DNA of 64,000 nt from a virus: positions 3,698 through 67,697 of the IMG/VR virus record IMGVR_UViG_3300044910_000225; one strand, given 5' to 3'. The translations under genes were made by a program, and so were the position numbers. The notes under the pieces are model-generated. The model was not told the origin of the DNA. It made no database searches and worked only from the letters and a program-made list of their open reading frames with translations. Below are positions 3,420 through 60,669 of this stretch, piece by piece (the stretch's first letter is position 1; every line of letters begins with the position of its first letter).

Positions 3420-4995
3420 TCCTGAAAAGAAGACAGTAGTAGAATGGATCAATGGTGTAAGCTATGATGTTGATCCTACGTATGTTCCAAGTGACTTTGC
3501 ACTGAAGTTTGTTACTTTTATAAAGCTAGTAAATGGGGGTAAAGGTGAAGAGAATAAGACTCCTGTAATCCACTATAAGATGCTAGATCAGATAGCAGGT
3601 AAGAAGCAGAATATCACTAATCTATGCTCAAGGGGTATGGCAAAGACAACTATCATGGGTGAATATATGATACTGTATATTGCTACATATGGCGGTATAG
3701 ATGGTTTTGGAGATATACCTCTAGGACTGTATGTAAGTGATAGTATTGAGAATGGTGTAAAGAATATGCGTAAGAATCTAGAGTATAGATGGGAAAATAG
3801 TGAGTTCCTACAGAAGTATATACCAAGGATACGATTCACAGATATAAGATGGGAATTCGAGAATGTAGATGGTAAAGTAACTATCTTTAAAGGGTATGGT
3901 GGTAAGACTGGAGTGAGGGGTAGTAAAGAACTAGGACAAAGACCATATATTGCAATATTGGATGACCTCATATCAGATGAGGATGCAAGATCACAGACAG
4001 TAAGAGCAAGTATAGAGGATACAGTGTATAAGGCTATAGACTATGCTCTACATCCTAGTAGAAGAAAGACTATCTGGAGTGGTACACCATTTAATGCTAA
4101 TGACCCACTGTATAAGGCTGTAGAGTCAGGAGCATGGTATGTTAATGTCTATCCTGTATGTGAAGTATTTCCATGTGAAGAGAAAGACTTCAAAGGTGGA
4201 TGGGAAGATCGTTTCACATATGAGTATGTAAAGACACAGTATGATAAGGCACTGAGAGCTGGTAAGATAGATACGTTCAATCAGGAGCTGATGCTGAGAA
4301 TCATGTCAGACGAAGACCGACTGGTACAAGATAGTGATATTGTATGGTATGATAGAAGTACAGTACTGTCTAATAAAGGAAAGTATAACTTCTATATCAC
4401 CACAGATTTTGCTACAAGTGAGAAGACAAGTGCTGACTACAGTGTGATCAGTGTATGGGCATACAATAACAATGGTGACTGGTTACTAGTGGATGGTGTG
4501 TGTAAGAGACAGCTGATGGATAAGAATATAGATGATCTGTTTAGATTCGTAAACTTGTATAAACCTCAGAGTGTAGGGGTAGAGGTAACAGGGCAGCAAG
4601 GTGGATTCATACAGTGGATACAAGATCAGATGCTAACAAGGAATATCTTCTTCAATCTAGCAAGTGAAGGTAATAGTGGTAATCCAGGACTAAGACCAAA
4701 TACTAATAAGATGGTACGATTCAATACTGTGCTACCACTATTCAAAGCTAGAAAGATATGGATGCCTAAAGCAATGGAGACAAGTGATATCATAGTGGAA
4801 GCAATGGATGAGTTAAGGAATGCAAGTGCAGGGGGATTCAAGAGTAAGCATGATGATTTCATAGATACAGTGAGTATGCTGAGCAGTCTACAGACATGGA
4901 AGCCAAGTGAAGAAGTAGCATATGAGCAAAAGAAAGATGGAGTATGGGAAGAGGTAGACTTTGAAGAAGCAGTACACAATAGTCTAGTATTCTAG
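3412..4995 (+). CDS. terL: Terminase large subunit
   Basis: Walker A SRGMAKTT, Walker B AILDD, nuclease motifs TTDFA and HDDFID. Confidence 0.95.
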   Translation: MSSPEKKTVVEWINGVSYDVDPTYVPSDFALKFVTFIKLVNGGKGEENKTPVIHYKMLDQIAGKKQNITNLCSRGMAKTTIMGEYMILYIATYGGIDGFGDIPLGLYVSDSIENGVKNMRKNLEYRWENSEFLQKYIPRIRFTDIRWEFENVDGKVTIFKGYGGKTGVRGSKELGQRPYIAILDDLISDEDARSQTVRASIEDTVYKAIDYALHPSRRKTIWSGTPFNANDPLYKAVESGAWYVNVYPVCEVFPCEEKDFKGGWEDRFTYEYVKTQYDKALRAGKIDTFNQELMLRIMSDEDRLVQDSDIVWYDRSTVLSNKGKYNFYITTDFATSEKTSADYSVISVWAYNNNGDWLLVDGVCKRQLMDKNIDDLFRFVNLYKPQSVGVEVTGQQGGFIQWIQDQMLTRNIFFNLASEGNSGNPGLRPNTNKMVRFNTVLPLFKARKIWMPKAMETSDIIVEAMDELRNASAGGFKSKHDDFIDTVSMLSSLQTWKPSEEVAYEQKKDGVWEEVDFEEAVHNSLVF

Positions 4996-36708: not shown

Positions 36709-37242
36709 TCATATAAGGAATCTGCTGGTTGTGACTTCCACTTCTGGAGATATAGCATTAAGTTCTTTCAAAAGCATTTCCTGGACTACAGCTGAAGCTT
36801 CCTCAGGTGTAGCATAACTACCTAGATACACTTCTTTAGAACCTCGTCTAACACGAGCTACAAATCTTCCACTTTTATTGGACACACCATAGTATCCTGT
36901 GGCATTATTACTATACTTTATACCAACAGGCTTCAGGCCTGTATCTCTCATATGTTTAAGATTATCTATGTTAGAACACCATTCTAAATTGTCTACAGAG
37001 TTGTCATGCTTAACACCATTCTTATGATTGATATGTTCTCCATCAAAAGGTGGTATGAAAGCTTTGCCTACCTCACGATGTATCTTCTTACAAAATACTT
37101 TACCATTAAGTTTTATGTTAACAGTCATATATCCATTTTTATCAGGTACTAGTTTGCGTTCTGTAACATTCCCATTCTTGTGGAATAAAACTCTACCATC
37201 CCTAGTTATTTCATATCTATCTTCAAAGCCTTTAATCCACAT
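36709..37242 (-). mobile_element. Free-standing HNH-AP2 homing endonuclease
   Basis: INHKNGVKHDNSVDNLEW plus YLGSYATPEEA AP2-like domain. Confidence 0.85.
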
Positions 37243-38046: not shown

Positions 38047-38229
38047 TTAATCTCCTTTAGGTAGGTCTGGTGCAGAGTCAATTATGACCTGCATGGCTTT
38101 AAAGTATACGCCTTTGTATTGTTCATTCAGTTTAGCAAGTGCTTCAGCTTTCACTTTAGCAGATGCTTCTGATGTAGCAATAGCATCATACTTCTTACTG
38201 TATTCTTTTGGTGTCATACACTGCTCCAT
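38047..38229 (-). CDS. Hypothetical protein
   Basis: Short coupled ORF. Confidence 0.5.
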   Translation of the reverse strand: MEQCMTPKEYSKKYDAIATSEASAKVKAEALAKLNEQYKGVYFKAMQVIIDSAPDLPKGD

Positions 38230-40275
38230 TTACTATAGTCTATGTCTTCCCAATCACCATCTACAGATTTGCTGTAGGTTGTTACACGACCACTGAAGAA
38301 GTCAGTGAGCACTGTACCTACAACATCATCCATGTATGGTAATGGGTTGACAGTAGTATTATAGTTAGGTTTCATACCAAGTTCCTTTAAAGCAATATCA
38401 GCACGATACTGAATGTAACGCTTCAAGTCACTGTTGGCAATGTGAGCATAATCAAAGTAATCTACTAGAGCTTCTTCATATGCTACCATCTCACGGATAC
38501 CCTGATAGATATCGTACTTCAACTCATCATCCCAAATATCAGGATTCTCAGATATGAATGTACGGAACAAGTAACAGTTTCCAATGAAGTGCATATTCTC
38601 TTCTCTTCGCTGTATTCACTACGTGACGCTAATACGTAGCAGTTCTCTTATGAACTTCTGTATATTTCTATACAGGCTGGACTATATCATACTCCTTATG
38701 GAGTGGTTCCGCTTCCCATCGCTTGACGGTACTCTACTAACTCTGATGGTGTCATCAGGTTTTCGATAGTCTCTGAACTTTGTTGTTTGTAAATATTTAG
38801 TGCATCAACCCATGCAGGTTTACTTCTAGTTCTAACCCTAGAAATCCCAGATGGATGCACATTAAATAATTCCCCTATACGTTTATTAGATATAGTTGTT
38901 GTTAATGCGAAGTGCAGTATTTTCAAAATATTATTAAGATTATTTCCACTTGTCAAAGGACTCTTTGGAGGAATATAGCCTTTAAACTCATCTTCATCAA
39001 AAATGAATTTCCATCGAGTCTTGTACCTTATTAAAGATACATGCTTTGGTTCCATGTAATACTTTTCACCTAATTCTATATTTGATACTACACTATTATG
39101 CATTATATCTCTTATGATATTTCTAACTGTCTCTGCTGTAATAGTAGCACATCCATTTAATTCGCCTTTCTTAGGCGCACATAGACCAGTAGCAAAAGCA
39201 TGTAGAGTGTTCTCTTTGTAAGTTATTTCCTCTAGATTAGAAATAGCATTATTGAGCTTATTCCCGTCTATATGGTTTATAACAAAACCATCTCTAATAG
39301 GTCTTCCTAGAAAACACTCATAGATAAATCTATGTGCTCTGTACTGCTTTTGTTCATTACCTTCGCGTAATGTAACTACTGCATAACCAGTTGTCTTATT
39401 TGTCATTACAGATACCATTGGTTTTCTAATACCATAGATATTGCCATCTGTATCTGCACTATATCTTTTAAACTTATGATGAAACTTTCTCATGTATGTC
39501 CTTCGTGTATTATTTCATCACTATAACATATGAATGATTAGTTTCATCTTAGGGTAGCAACCTTAGCTGCTGATTACCATATGCTTATGCACTTAGGCTT
39601 CCCAGCAATTCAAAACCTTTTAATTCGACTAGTGTCTTCGTTAATCGAATACTCTACTATGGTACAAAGACCAGGGTATTTCCCAGAGAACTGATACTTA
39701 AGGAGTGCTGCAAACTGTGCCATGAGAGAGATACCTTCAGCACCTCCCGCATAGATGGCAAGCATACGAGCTACATCTCTACGAAATACTTTATCAAGAG
39801 CAAGCTCTGATAAGTTCATAGCCTTGTACTCTTCGTACTTCTTCACCTTAGCTTTCTCAAGGTAATCAGCTTTAGAAGCCATAACAGGTATATCAAGGAA
39901 GTCCTGATAAATACTGTTAGGGAGTCCTATGGTTTCAGTGAATAGAGAGTAGTTCTCAATGTGAGTGAACTCTCTAGCCATGAAGTTCGATAGCATAGCC
40001 TGTACTTCAATAGGTTTGAATATACGAAGTAAGACTGCATAGCCATTCTCAACTGAGACTTCCTGCTGAGTAAAGAGTCTCATGGTACGAGTGATGTCAT
40101 CCTTCTCTTTAGGAGAAGCTCTATCAAAGTCCTGAATGTCTTTAGCCAGTGATATGATATCAGCAGTCCAGTGAGCACGATCATGTTCTTTGTAATAGTT
40201 CCAGAATTCAGGGTATCGGAAGCCTTTAGAAGACTTGAATGTGGGAATACCATTAATGTGAATTAGGGTACTCAT
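38214..40275 (-). CDS. nrdB: Ribonucleotide reductase class I beta subunit, spliced (exon 1 40275-39644, exon 2 38607-38214)
   Basis: Splicing restores IVEYS-I-REENMH (canonical SIRDExxH); E..H iron ligands present; C-terminal DFFSGRVTTY. Confidence 0.9.
38608..39643 (-). ncRNA. Group I intron in nrdB
   Basis: P AATTGCTGGGAA, Q AATCAGCAGC, R GTTCAGAGACTA, S TGATATAGTCC; P1 exon TTCGAT pairs with GTCGAA (U.G); terminal G. Confidence 0.92.
38696..39493 (-). CDS. Intron-encoded HNH homing endonuclease
   Basis: INHIDGNKLNNAISNLE; its 3' end overlaps the intron core. Confidence 0.9.
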   Translation of the reverse strand: MRKFHHKFKRYSADTDGNIYGIRKPMVSVMTNKTTGYAVVTLREGNEQKQYRAHRFIYECFLGRPIRDGFVINHIDGNKLNNAISNLEEITYKENTLHAFATGLCAPKKGELNGCATITAETVRNIIRDIMHNSVVSNIELGEKYYMEPKHVSLIRYKTRWKFIFDEDEFKGYIPPKSPLTSGNNLNNILKILHFALTTTISNKRIGELFNVHPSGISRVRTRSKPAWVDALNIYKQQSSETIENLMTPSELVEYRQAMGSGTTP

Positions 40276-42644: not shown

Positions 42645-43196
42645 TTAGATTTGGTTGTTATTTTGTTTAGAGGTATTTAGTTTTATCCACTTAAATCCTC
42701 CTGCCGTTTTTTGTTTCCCTGCTACTGCTAGAGAGATGTATCTGAAGTCAACTCCAGTATGCAATGCTGCATCTGTTTGTGAGATAAACTCTTTTATCAG
42801 TACGCCTTCTAACGTTAACTGTGCGACAGGTACTAGCCCATTATGAGGCAGCATATGATAGCTATGCATAACGTTGTTAAAAGAGGTAGCCCATTCTAGA
42901 TTTGTTATAAAGTTATTTTCTTTATTCCCATCTATATGATTAACCTGTTTCTTATTAAGGGGATTAGGTATAAAAGTCTCAGCTACTAATCTGTGTACAT
43001 TACAGAGTTTCCCACTTAATACTTTTTTATTAACTCTATCCCTAACTCTTAAGTCATAGTATAAATAACCAGTTTGTTTATTCTTTTGTGGTTTAAGGTA
43101 TTGTGCTTTTCCGATAGAATATACTCTACCATCATTAAAGACTATGTATTTATCATAAATGATAACTCCACCACTATTCAATAATTCATTTAACAT
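42645..43196 (-). mobile_element. HNH endonuclease with NUMOD1-like C-terminus
   Basis: VHRLVAETF...VNHIDGNKENN; KQKTAGGFKW. Confidence 0.88.
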
Positions 43197-44342: not shown

Positions 44343-44834
44343 TTAGGCTGCACCATGATTCTCATGAAACATGTACAGCACCTCAGCTTCTTTACGTAAC
44401 TCTATTGCTTTAGTCATATCCTTAGACCTACCTAAATGCAATCTCTTTTTATTAACTGTTATCTGAGCTTCCCATACTTTATCTCTTTTATGCCATTTCA
44501 CACCCATAACACCTGATGTGTTAGATGAGTACATAGATAAATTTTGACAATTTATTTGTATTGGTACTTCTCGTAGGTTACTGAGGGAGTTATTACTTCT
44601 ATCATGGTCTATATGGTCAATATGCTGAGTAGGTATGTAACCATACATATACAACCATACTAACCTATGAGCAAGATAATTCTCCCTCTTAACTTTAATA
44701 GCAATGTACCCTTTATTATGAAGAGCACCAGCTATAGATCCTATTTTTACGTGGTTAGAACTTACCTTCCAACGGAAAATACCTGTAGCAGGATCATAAG
44801 ATAGTAGTTCTTTAAGTGTTTCTTGTGTGAGCAT
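44343..44834 (-). mobile_element. HNH-AP2 homing endonuclease
   Basis: LLSYDPATGIF, IDHIDHDRSNN, NTSGVMGV, AP2-like domain. Confidence 0.88.
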
Positions 44835-56829: not shown

Positions 56830-57753
56830 TTAGTAGTATTTCCATATGAAGCCTCCAGCTGTTTTTGCTTTTCCGTTACAGACCTTAGAGATGTTTCCAG
56901 ATCTAATGTTAGTAGCTTGTGAAGCCTCACTCATAGAAGTGAAGAGATTAATGACTTCTCCTTCTAATGATAATTGAAGTATAGGTTTAGGTAGGTACTT
57001 TGTATTCACGGTAACTATAACTTCTTCTGGGGACAAATAGCTCTTACTCCAAAAGAATCCATTGTGAGTATAGTAGTCTCCTCGTATGACACTACGAACT
57101 TTCATCTGTTCAAACTCAGGTTCAGGTATTTCTACTATAGAAGAGTACACTTCTACAATATCTCCTGTGATAGGATCATACTGAAATATCTCACATAAGT
57201 AAGACTCATTGACTATAAGAGGAGGTATGCTAGGTCCTTCATCTGTATATAACCATACATAACCATAAGCTGTAGGAATTTTACCTTGACAGCAACTTGT
57301 GATATTACGTTGATCTAATGTGGAGTCTTTTCTACAAGCTTCAGCAATAGAAAGATGCTTAGCAACAAATTTCCCAGAAGCTAAGTATTGATATACAGTA
57401 GTCTGGGTAGTATTTATGATGTTATTTTTAACATCTCTATTTGCTCGCTCTTTATTTACCTTCCAAGTGACTAGTTCAATGTTAGAGAATGAGTATCCTT
57501 TAGAATTATCTAGTCTATCACAAGATGGTCTAAAGTCAGATGTAAAGTTTGAATCAACCCAGTCATTATATAAAGCTTCAAAGTTTGGTTGGGATATAAG
57601 CCACTTAGTGAGTTCTTCTTTAGTATACAATGGAGGTATATGCCCTCTGCTTTTAGAGCTATAGCATTGATCATAGAATATTCTATAGCATAATCCTTTA
57701 GGTGTCCTTTCATAAGGTCTATTTACGTAACAGTCTGTAGTTCTTCTTTTCAT
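56830..57753 (-). mobile_element. Homing endonuclease (HNH-like domain plus three NUMOD1-like repeats)
   Basis: PSCDRLDNSKGYSFSNIELV; repeated ..AYGYVW/HNGFFW/AGGFIW modules. Confidence 0.8.
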
Positions 57754-57812: not shown

Positions 57813-59290
57813 CTACTTATTCAAGTATATAGCGTTGTTTAACTGTAATCGAGACCTGCTTGCGCAGACGTAATACAAACGTAGCTCTTCCTCTTCTGAG
57901 TGAGAGCGTTCTGATGGTTTCATCTCAAGGATGTCAGCAAGATCAAAGTCATGAGCTATGGTCACTGAATCAAAAGTAAGCCCCTTACTGCTGTGGCAGG
58001 TACTTAAGGTGATGAAGTGATCGTCAGGATGCTTCTCTGCCTGCTGAGCATGCTTGTATGCATCATAGATCTTAGATGCTCCATGTCTCATGATAGTCTG
58101 TGCTGCTGTCTTTATGTTACGGTCCTCTTCACCATGAAGCATAAGGATGTATGCAAGACAAGTACGATACTTCCCAGGTAGAGTCTTCGATGAATAGTAA
58201 TGATCAACATCCTTCTGAATATACTTCAAAGCATTGTCATATATTTTACAGTCCTTCTTCAAGTTCATCAGAGTAAGCATATTAGAGAATATCTCCTTAG
58301 CCTGTCTGGTGAGGTTGAATGGTGTATGCTGAGCAGTGAGGGTGATCATGTATTCAATGAGACCACTATTGGTACGAGAGATGATGGCTTCACTACGAAT
58401 GGTAGTGTCAGAATGATCTGTACCTTTGAATGCAATGGTATCATCAAGGTGACGATGGATGAAGTCCTCAATGCTACTAGCAATGGCTGTAGAGCAACGA
58501 AAGGACTGAGATAGGGTTTTGGTCACTCCAACATTAGCAAGAGCTTTAAAGCCATTAATGGTGTGATTAAAGCTATAGATATTCTGTAGTGGATCACCTA
58601 CCATGATCTTCAGGTTAGCTGGAAGTAATAGGAAGATCTCAAGAGTAACAGCGTTAATGTCTCCTGCTTCATCCAACATGATGACATCAAATGGAACATC
58701 ATAATGGATACAACCAAGATCAAGAAGCATATGATAAAGCTTCAGATAGAATGCATGAGTACATGGTATAGTCTTATTGACCATAGCATTGAAATATCTA
58801 GATATGATCTGCTGATTAGAAGGTTCATGTTCATCATAGTATTGCTGAAGAGTAGTGTATTTGGATAGACAGAATGCTTCTAGATGCTGAACTACTAATA
58901 CCTTATCATCATAGTCTATTCTCTCAGAGATGTCACGATATGTGAATGATGCAACTTCTCTCTTCTTCCCAACATCACCCTCAAGTGAAAGACCATGAGT
59001 AACGGTAGGAAGATATGCTAAAGAGTGGGTAGTCTTACATGCTACGTATGAAGGGAACTTAGACTTAGATTCATCAGCAATAGCTTTGTTGTATGCAAGA
59101 TAGAGCTGTGCAGTATGAGGCAATGACTCAGCTACTTTCAGTAGAGTATAAGTTTTAGAAGCTAAGCTCCCGCAACAGCTGATATTTTAAGTATGTTGCT
59201 AGTTGCGGGAATTCCTCCTGTGTTGGAGTTAGACAGTTGAATAGCTGTCTCTATAATAGATTCTTGTTCTTGTGTTAATTTGTACGGCAT
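57813..59290 (-). CDS. SF1 (UvrD-like) helicase; Walker A split across frames at 59160-59167
   Basis: LAYNK, LDEAGD, VGDPLQ, SQSFR, TCHSSKG, YVCASR; a 42-aa N-terminal ORF (59290-59162) ends SAVAGA-stop and SKT follows in another frame. Confidence 0.85.
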
Positions 59291-59925
59291 TTTGATTTTC
59301 CTGTTCCACCTAATCTGCTACCACATGATTGGCATACATGTTGTTTATCTTGATTTAACTGGTATCGTTCTTTACTAATAACTTTACCAGAATTACATAA
59401 TGTACAAGTACATTGTAACAATATACGTTTATGCCCTGTTACCCTGCTAATACGCTCTTTTACATAAGGCAATACTTTCAAGTATCCAAATACTTTATGA
59501 TAGTAATTTGTTTCAATATCCCGCATAGTTGTTTCATATTTAGCAGCAACAGAAGCTGCTTGAGCTTTACGAGTAGTCTCAGTAAGTCTGCCTTGTTTAC
59601 CAGCATGTAGCATATTCTCAGAGTGTGTAACCCATTCTAGATTAGATACATGATTATTAGTTCCATCATTATCAATATGATTTATATGCAACTTATTTTC
59701 TGGGTTAGGTATGAATGCTTTCGCCACTAATCTATGTACAGAAAAAGTAGTAGCTTTACCATACTTGCTTAGTGCAACTGTATGGTAAGACGTATGATTC
59801 TTTTCTTGTATATTTAGGTTTAAGAACTTTGCTGGCTTACCATCAAGAGGAGTAGAATAAACTCTCCCATAGTTTGATATCTGGTATCTGCCTTCATATT
59901 CTTCTATATCTTTAAACTCTTCCAT
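59275..59925 (-). mobile_element. NUMOD4-HNH homing endonuclease
   Basis: YQISNYGRV, VHRLVAKAF, INHIDNDGTNN. Confidence 0.9.
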
Positions 59926-59984
59926 GTGTATCCTTTTATTTATATAATAAGATTATAGCAGTAGCATCCTTAATGTTTCATTAT

Positions 59985-60080
59985 TTAAGCAACAGCTGAT
60001 ACCTTCAGGATAGATCCTACTGGTAATAACTGAGCTGTTTGTATGATGTCGTTCTGTTCATCAGTGAGAGTATATGACAT
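59985..60080 (-). pseudogene. Stranded original 5' end of the helicase
   Basis: MSYTLTDEQNDIIQTAQLLPVGSILKVSAVA-stop with RBS; paralogous to 59290-59162. Confidence 0.85.
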
Positions 60081-60098
60081 GAAGTTCCTTTATGGTAA

Positions 60099-60320
60099 TT
60101 AATAGACTGGACTATGAATAACATCATAATAACCCCAGTCATTGTATCGTTCAATACTAGCCCATTTACTTGCAGTTAATTCATAATAATCAGTATCTTC
60201 TGTTTTATGTTTAATCAACATACCTGGTTTAGGATAGCTTTCTTCTAAAGCATATAACTCATTCAGATGTTGTTGTGTTCTAATAATCTCAGTATGTAAA
60301 GAAGTAAAGTTATATCTCAT
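60099..60320 (-). CDS. Hypothetical protein
   Basis: ORF with AAGGA RBS. Confidence 0.6.
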   Translation of the reverse strand: MRYNFTSLHTEIIRTQQHLNELYALEESYPKPGMLIKHKTEDTDYYELTASKWASIERYNDWGYYDVIHSPVY

Positions 60321-60513
60321 AGCATAATCCTTATAGTTAATATGTTATCTACACTAGGCAGTCCTCTGTATTTATCGTCCATATATTACGTAATTCAGAC
60401 ACAGGCATTCAGGTTATATTCTATAGCTAATAGAAAGGATGGGAATATATAACTGTGATTCCAATGTAACTCACAGTACCTGTAGAGGACTATCTAGTGA
60501 AGATGGATGGTGG

Positions 60514-60590
60514 TGGTCTCATCTAGTGAACTCGAATCACTGACCTAGTCATTAGAAGTGACTTGCTCTATCCAACTGAGCTAAGATGAG
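60514..60590 (-). tRNA. tRNA-Arg(UCU)
   Basis: Cloverleaf CTCATCT/AGATGAG, anticodon loop CTTCTAA, T-loop TTCGAGT, encoded CCA. Confidence 0.92.
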
Positions 60591-60593
60591 ATA

Positions 60594-60669
60594 TGGTGGG
60601 CTAGGTAGGGTATGATCCTACAACCGCTCCCTTATGAGGGGAGAACTCTGCCAATTGAGTTACTAGCCC
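60594..60669 (-). tRNA. tRNA with CAU anticodon (Ile2 or elongator Met)
   Basis: GGGCTAG/CTAGCCC acceptor, loop CTCATAA, encoded CCA; atypical T-loop ATCATAC. Confidence 0.85.

Follow-up and report, generated by a model that had tools for sequence, protein, structure and literature searches.

A five-nucleotide coding gap at the Walker A codons of a phage UvrD-like helicase gene: a candidate site of programmed ribosomal hopping

Described bypassing systems and the helicase locus

Programmed translational bypassing so far rests on one natural bacterial case. Here we describe the anatomy, inheritance, and recurrence of a short coding gap in the Walker A codons of a UvrD-like superfamily 1 (SF1) helicase gene, and its association with an upstream hairpin and an AGGAG element; the gap, 5 nucleotides (nt) long, lies on the minus strand of a 64,000-nt stretch of viral DNA (the window; positions 3,698 to 67,697 of IMG/VR record IMGVR_UViG_3300044910_000225). 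The window makes up most of this 67.7-kb uncultured virus record, which has direct terminal repeats. A literature search, with main texts rather than supplements as its scope, found no bypass or frameshift at a helicase Walker A motif.

The closest described arrangement is MobA/gene 39/gene 60 of phage T4, in which an HNH endonuclease cassette lies in an essential replication gene (10.1101/2022.08.31.505936, Manning & Atkins; 10.1101/2024.12.09.627546, Wills et al.; PMC5009743). The bypass lies inside donor-derived DNA, the insert blocks nicking by MobA, and the gene 60 cassette "remains unique" according to the 2022 preprint (10.1101/2022.08.31.505936). In gene 60, a 5′ stem-loop stands 9 nt before the take-off codon, a mini-SD (Shine-Dalgarno) element aids landing, and pairing of the exiting mRNA has been proposed to drive forward bypassing (10.1101/2024.12.09.627546). 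The helicase locus of the window has the following parts, as given by the open reading frame (ORF) list or the method named:

60320-60099, minus strand: 73-codon gene, the first in order in the region of interest (ORF list)
59985..60080, minus strand: relic helicase N-terminus, 31 codons, MSYTLTDEQ...KVSAVA, then TAA (ORF list)
59275..59925, minus strand: free-standing HNH homing endonuclease gene, 216 amino acids (aa); Pfam HNH_3 (5e-10) and NUMOD4 (1.9e-9), PHROG 59 HNH endonuclease (1e-43)
59165..59290, minus strand: replacement helicase N-terminus borne by the cassette, 42 codons, MPYKLT...KISAVAGA (sequence, ORF list)
59214..59219, minus strand: internal SD-like AGGAGG, 2 nt 5′ of the hairpin, read as part of T-G-G
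59167..59211, minus strand: RNA hairpin, with 5′ arm 59211-59198, loop 59197-59180, and 3′ arm 59179-59167 (folding)
59165..59167, minus strand: proposed take-off codon GCT (Ala), with TAG directly after (sequence)
59160..59164, minus strand: 5-nt coding gap TAGCT, with stop TAG 59164-59162 and landing GCT 59162-59160 (sequence, alignment)
57813..59159, minus strand: UvrD-like SF1 helicase body, from resume codon TCT (SKTYTLLK...) to stop, donor-like over roughly its first 120 nt and native beyond (Pfam UvrD_C, UvrD-helicase)

Like gene 60, the window has an untranslatable gap in a donor-derived flank, roughly 40-46 codons from the start of the downstream ORF; a stop comes right behind the take-off codon, the landing codon matches it, a stem-loop stands 5′ of it, and there is a part for an SD-like element. 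The two differ in the length of the gap (50 nt in gene 60, 5 nt here), in the absence from the window of a stable stem-loop containing the stop, in the position of the upstream hairpin, which abuts the take-off codon here instead of standing 9 nt away, and in the position of the SD, inside the gap in gene 60 and 5′ of the hairpin here. The interrupted gene encodes a topoisomerase large subunit in T4 and a UvrD-like SF1 helicase here. Moreover, unlike the MobA case, the gene is not divided into halves that both work; the cassette brings a complete N-terminus of its own, and 31 codons of the old one stay behind as a relic.

At the +1 site of the release factor 2 (RF2) gene, prfB, an SD behind the ribosome and a stop in the A site push the ribosome forward, as they would in the window. 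A duplex formed by an upstream hairpin that refolds near a shift site acts similarly; it mimics an internal SD duplex, attenuating −1 and stimulating +1 frameshifting (PMC3639245, PMC6321510). The window differs in that its +1 frame is closed after two codons, in that the movement required is 5 nt, and in that its SD lies 46 nt upstream in sequence and comes near only if the hairpin forms. Bypassed inserts in yeast mitochondrial mRNAs are longer than the gaps described here. Together with the candidate bypass in the terminase gene of Streptomyces phage Hau3, they resemble the window in being natural gaps skipped to make protein, but belong to another system, with no tie to P-loop codons or to an SD-hairpin module in the accessible texts (PMC5009743, PMC10732093). 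The stop-hops of Weiss et al. 1987, in which peptidyl-tRNA re-pairs at an identical codon just past a stop, come closest in the movement itself (cited in PMC5009743 and 10.1101/2024.12.09.627546); those were artificial, low-level, and without stimulators, whereas the candidate here occurs naturally, recurs, and has a hairpin and AGGAGG beside it.

At the break, the minus strand reads GCT GTT GCG GGA GCT TAG CT TCT AAA ACT, as a preliminary description of this DNA had reported, with GGA at 59170-59168 and TCT at 59159-57. The 42-codon frame (59290-59165) ends at TAG, after AVAGA, and the frame of TCT stays open for 448 further codons to 57813, in keeping with the earlier figure of 400+. DNA alignment with L004, L005, L010, L013, and L021, loci of the window's clade, places exactly 5 extra bases at the break, which parts the Ala of codon 5 from the Ser of codon 6 in AVAGA-SKT. 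The matched GCT codons lie 5 nt apart, as first described, and without the 5 nt the motif becomes AVAGASKT, which is uninterrupted in L005/P0006 (94% amino-acid identity to the helicase body), L010 (88%), L004 (87%), and L013, all of which lack the HNH gene. Throughout this clade, which also includes P0016 and P0019, Ser replaces the last Gly of Walker A (AGASKT, AGSSKS, AGSSKT); more distant helicase relatives have AGSGKT.

Gene content and alignment place a mobile homing-endonuclease cassette in the Walker A codons of the phage's helicase gene; it comprises the HNH gene, the replacement helicase N-terminus, the 5-nt gap, and about 120 nt of donor helicase. The relic, left from the helicase native to the phage, breaks off within the Walker A codons; it can be aligned to the N-termini of L013, L005, and L004 as far as GCTGTTGCT, past which it diverges. 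The HNH gene, whose product joins a nuclease domain to a DNA-binding module (HNH_3 + NUMOD4) as in free-standing homing endonucleases, overlaps the start of the replacement N-terminus by its final 16 nt and is absent at the corresponding place in L004, L005, L010, L013, and L021. The replacement is closer to the L021/P0019 lineage than to the relic and, by alignment, is 27 nt longer than the relic copy at 60080-59985, which bears out the roughly 9 extra codons noted earlier. Past the gap, the initial 120 nt share 70-73% nucleotide identity with L005 and the 60 nt after them 85%; further on the figure is mostly 88-97%, with one 60-nt step dipping to 80%. Since the gap falls within the tract of low identity, it lies in imported DNA. 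Presence or absence between close relatives at one site, together with a co-converted flank, is the pattern of intronless homing. A group I intron carrying this HNH gene was rejected: there is no Intron_gpI match at E ≤ 1 in 58900-60400, though the same search detects one around the HNH gene in nrdB. The final ∼120 nt of the helicase are only 65-74% identical to L005 at the nucleotide level and adjoin an HNH-type gene (56830-57753), as if they were a second co-conversion tract.

The preliminary description had allowed for a duplication mutation. Formally the 5 nt are one, as AGCTT can be read here as standing twice in perfect tandem (59168-59159), but they are inherited with the cassette and did not arise on the spot. 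We also considered the duplication as the mark of a recombination junction and rejected this because the donor-like tract extends ∼120 nt past the gap. Relatives with an uninterrupted GGA GCT TCT, which had been named as grounds for giving up the hop, do exist, but only among cassette-free loci; as a mobile cassette predicts exactly that, they do not refute it.

Inheritance, recurrence, and the hairpin-AGGAG module

The HNH protein and the 31-aa relic, both in exact form, are each found on 5 contigs, and so is P0126, a 436-aa truncated helicase call identical to the ORF that begins at TTG 59123 in the window. The longest of these contigs is 68,190 nt, compared with 67,697 nt for this record, so not all of them are this record; they show no divergence, and selection since the gap arose is therefore not measurable within the window's strain. 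A profile of N-terminal mini-ORFs run against short proteins recovered two diverged relatives, both of which stop after the same AVAGA: P0137, of 62 aa, with 88% identity across the 42 residues, and P0138, of 42 aa, with 74%. P0138 and P0021, an N-terminally truncated helicase 65% identical to that of the window, come from contigs of the same greatest size (3,368 nt). None of the 16 residue differences (11 in P0138 and 5 in P0137; counted by hand) touches the codons of AGGAGG or of either stem arm, and two of them lie in the hairpin loop. The block TGGIPATS is invariant in the three relatives, which would be equally explained by AGGAGG plus the 5′ arm and by a nascent-peptide signal.

No other true relatives of the 42-aa piece were found among 1.84 billion representatives, nor any longer proteins with this N-terminus, the latter being weak evidence. 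In searches whose scope began beyond very near records, no same-cassette relatives were recovered by gap pattern or HNH protein (viral_contigs) or by a back-translated GGIPATSNILK pattern (viral_contigs and genome_contigs). Cultured phages gave no near DNA match to the window, and the best helicase protein matches among them, which are intact, do not exceed 44% identity.

The gap recurs in other lineages. Among 69 helicase loci surveyed from the virus collection, 65 have an in-frame Walker A, 2 (L074 and L075) have an intein there, and 2 have short gaps. A search with the pattern GCNGGNTCNTAANNNNGGNAARAC gave 22 matches, of which only L069 and L083 are true cases; the other 20 were discarded as ordinary genes in another frame, e.g., Walker A-like ...GKT ORFs. 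The four gapped loci besides the window, all at helicases more distant from it, are listed here with the gap in parentheses:

L069, 7 nt: GGC TCC (TAACACT) GGA AAA ACT; codons TCC/ACT unmatched
L083, 7 nt: GGC TCG (TAAGTTA) GGT AAA ACC; codons TCG/TTA unmatched
L123 (genome collection), 8 nt: GGG TCC (TAAATTCC) GGG AAA ACT; matched TCC/TCC
L125, 6 nt, in frame: GGC TCT (TAACCA) GGT AAA ACA; codons TCT/CCA unmatched

With the window's TAGCT included, all five DNA-verified gaps begin with TAA or TAG and fall between motif codons 5 and 6. In the window, L069, and L125, C follows the stop, a weak termination context. The intein of L074 and L075 lies within the Walker A codons (...VTHN/T; about 2360-2500), and another occupies the DEAGD motif of P0025 (residues about 215-365), of the same helicase family.

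On a quick maximum-likelihood tree of 75 helicases, from which loci with partial genes were left out and in which P0075 (95-99.7% identical to L083) stands in for L083, the gapped rows lie apart from one another, each beside intact rows. The fewest changes on this tree are 5 for the DNA-verified rows and 9 when all N-terminally truncated gene calls are included; the gap is thus reconstructed as at least five independent changes. In a comparison directed at common origin, pairwise identities among the N-terminal regions of the gapped loci gave no grouping. Protein calls that start at or just after the motif, and thus suggest further gaps, are P0075, P0081, P0089, P0095 (the last three with 22, 2, and 2 members), P0068, P0112, P0021, and P0041, and P0136 is a mini-ORF resembling that of L125; all of these were judged from protein calls, not from DNA. 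No HNH gene was seen beside the helicase in L069, L123, and L125 within the flanks examined, a likeness to MobA elements, some relatives of which keep the gap without an adjacent endonuclease.

On both sides of the break the gene looks to be in use. Every N-terminal mini-ORF retains a start codon behind an AAGGA-type ribosome site, and past the gap the reading frame runs on for 442-452 codons in L069, L123, and L125 and for 448 in the window. P0081 and P0089, both starting at the break, differ at 18 of 451 residues with no gaps; P0068 and P0112 are 68% identical.

Folding confirmed the hairpin that had been described as ending at the take-off codon: it has 13 pairs, with one bulge, one G-U, and an 18-nt loop. 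In a 91-nt context, its minimum free energy (MFE) is −24.4 kcal/mol (z −4.77; 0 of 200 shuffles as stable), its 3′ arm consists of the Walker A codons, and its last pair takes the first base of the take-off codon. We compared the 60 nt ending at the take-off codon in the 5 gapped loci and 65 distinct intact loci. Fold energies were −18.9 kcal/mol for the window, −19.1 for L069, −23.7 for L083, −19.8 for L123, and −22.3 for L125; the intact loci averaged −10.4 kcal/mol (standard deviation, 4.0), and only 1 of 65 (L004) reached −18.9. This contrast lends comparative support to the role in the hop that was first proposed for the hairpin. In each gapped locus the fold is a single long hairpin that has the Walker A codons as its 3′ arm and ends at the take-off codon, and the 5′ arms track their own codons (UCCCGC/GCGGGA in the window, CCGGC/GCCGG in L123, and GCCAG/CUGGC in the others). 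Of the 15 pairs in the consensus fold, 6 carry compensatory changes; the window, with its longer loop, is misaligned there. When 87 sources were searched with a covariance model, R1, the 5 sites used to train it were the only ones recovered (next best, L051 at 24.9 bits), and the model hence adds no independent evidence. L083 has a further structure directly past the 5′ hairpin: its stop and 7-nt gap lie in their own stem-loop (2606-2640; GUAAGU...ACUUAC), like the take-off stem-loop of gene 60. No such stem-loop enclosing the stop was seen in the other four gapped loci; the window has only a weak pairing of AGCUUAGCU with AGCUGAGU downstream, present in the MFE structure and not in the centroid.

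The SD-like AGGAGG just 5′ of the hairpin did not figure in the preliminary description. AGGAG(G) lies 1-5 bases 5′ of each hairpin and at −50 to −55 in all five gapped loci; in the intact loci, AGGAG is found at −44 to −58 in 4 of 65. Its reading frame varies (A-CA GGA GGA in the window, AAG GAG GAU in L123 and L125), which points to a signal in RNA rather than in protein. In the 64 kb as a whole, AGGAGG occurs 19 times on both strands, no more than chance.

Proposed mechanism and alternative explanations

We put at about 0.6 the probability that the full-length helicase is made by a programmed 5-nt hop from GCU to GCU, aided by the hairpin and AGGAGG; that recoding of some kind yields the full-length protein is, in our judgment, quite likely. 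The comparative data support the GCT-GCT hop over a stop that was proposed at the outset, although the hop itself is still something we infer. When GCU occupies the P site and UAG-C, which terminates poorly, the A site, peptidyl-tRNA-Ala would let go, the mRNA would slide 5 nt, the tRNA would re-pair with the second GCU, and decoding would restart at UCU, giving the clade's normal AVAGASKT. The drive would come from the 13-bp hairpin refolding directly behind the ribosome, while AGGAGG at its 5′ foot would pair with 16S rRNA and, with the hairpin, draw some 5 nt of mRNA from the exit side. On the model of T4 MobA, the gap may also spoil the endonuclease's own target site and so make the allele immune to the HNH enzyme.

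Several points weigh against this hop. A tandem AGCTT duplication automatically yields matched codons and a stop, so these alone are no evidence of selection, and three of the five DNA-verified gaps (L069, L083, and L125) have no matched landing codon; the L083 contig also has Ns and a second frameshift, and L083 accordingly counts for less. Taken alone, the window's hairpin stands out only moderately: it belongs to the 0.6% most stable 60-nt windows (151 of 25,576) of the 64 kb, where equally stable folds occur at about 45 other places. Intact L004 folds at −20.6 kcal/mol, though as two small hairpins, and the difference between gapped and intact fold energies (Mann-Whitney p = 1.4e-4) is approximate since the rows are related. 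Covariation was read across lineages, P0137 and P0138 of the window's own lineage having been compared as proteins. Stop-hops without stimulators are low-level (10.1101/2024.12.09.627546), and both the hop and its efficiency are read here from sequence.

Among the alternatives, recoding without a full hop survives best, but we consider it unlikely. After a +2 (or −1) shift at GCU UAG, the P-loop would be longer by one or two residues, and the other loci would use +1 for 7-nt gaps, readthrough or +3 for the 6-nt gap, and +2 for the 8-nt gap. An SD, a shift codon, and a stop in succession do resemble the RF2 site. Both an upstream hairpin near a shift site and an internal SD have been described as +1 stimulators (PMC3639245, PMC6321510), every gapped locus still fits [AG]x4[GS]K[ST] with two extra residues, and the three unmatched gaps count in favor of such shifts. 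However, a separate event would be needed for each gap length: gaps of 5, 6, 7, and 8 nt cover all three frames, so one kind of frameshift cannot serve all, whereas skipping the whole gap gives a normal P-loop and one product length in every case. An RF2-type +1 frame would fit the 7-nt gaps of L069 and L083 but not the window, where +1 reads AGC TTC TAA; there, +2 (UUA) and −1 (AGC) offer no re-pairing, and +5 is perfect. Moreover, P-loop length does not vary among the intact family members examined (65 + 17).

A little less likely still is a dead end, in which the gap is a repair scar or resistance allele at the endonuclease cut site that inactivates a dispensable helicase, with no full-length protein made. 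The gene is full of selfish elements, the window's replication module has 6 HNH-type genes and a separate 730-aa primase, and the five contigs of the window's strain show no divergence, all of which would suit such a scar. Yet both flanking frames are intact in every lineage, including the diverged break-sharing pairs P0081/P0089 and P0068/P0112, and each of the five gaps opens with a stop, at precisely the same codon boundary; the hairpin and AGGAG that accompany the gap in five of five loci would be left unexplained by a dead gene.

It is very unlikely that the helicase works as two pieces, the 42-aa peptide and a product of re-initiation via AGGAGG brought near by the hairpin, which then assemble. 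SD-hairpin-start arrangements for initiation exist in T4. Genes split by Mob endonucleases do work as complexes (10.1101/2022.08.31.505936), but the window, L123, and L125 have no ATG, GTG, or TTG at or just past the gap, and the earliest usable starts come only after the SKT/GKT codons, at the cost of the Walker lysine. Finally, a sequencing or assembly artefact, which the preliminary description had kept as an alternative and which metagenome-only data might favor, is hardly credible, given the same truncated call on 5 contigs of differing length, two diverged relatives that end at the same residue, and independent assemblies of other lineages gapped at the same boundary.

Simpler accounts of the break were also rejected. 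Another genetic code or plain readthrough fails because the zero frame after TAG reaches TGA seven codons on; a suppressor or odd tRNA does not fit, as only tRNA-Arg(tct) and tRNA-Met(cat) were found. There is no long homopolymer at the break for transcriptional slippage, and no U-run after the hairpin as in an intrinsic terminator.

Neighboring elements and wider meaning

The two tRNA genes lie just upstream of the helicase region (60514-60669, minus strand). The replication module holds four further HNH or I-HmuI-like endonuclease genes (36709-37242, 42645-43196, 44343-44834, and 56830-57753, minus strand). Its ribonucleotide reductase small-subunit gene, nrdB, is in two pieces (39610-40275 and 38214-38594, minus strand) around an HNH gene (38696-39493), which is flanked by sub-threshold group I intron matches at 38658-38899 (E 5e-7) and 39434-39675 (E 2.6e-4); this interruption is probably a group I intron with a homing endonuclease. 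Elsewhere, a family A DNA polymerase in L069 (4359-5875) halts after ...DLSALNFSGVLCRNV and resumes in an ORF 230 nt later, which may be an intron or another interruption.

Judged from sequence, the window case would be a miniature counterpart of the T4 gene 60 jump. More broadly, and tentatively, the recurrent loci may represent an undescribed class of mini bypass modules in phage genomes, consisting of an internal SD, a hairpin with P-loop codons as its 3′ arm, a stop, and a 5-8 nt gap; such modules would arise or spread repeatedly at the Walker A motif of replication helicases and shield it from homing endonucleases, with the refolding of exiting mRNA pulling the ribosome across. Helicases of this kind are at present called N-terminally truncated genes or pseudogenes (e.g., P0126, P0021, P0068, P0075, P0089, and P0112), and their annotation would change. 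If true, this would be a minimal system, with a gap of 5-8 nt, no long gap to scan, and a hairpin-plus-SD module covarying across lineages, which could show whether pairing of the mRNA leaving the ribosome drives forward sliding; it would offer, in a simple natural form, a model for the much-discussed force behind the T4 gene 60 jump, and would tie conflict with homing endonucleases to the evolution of recoding.

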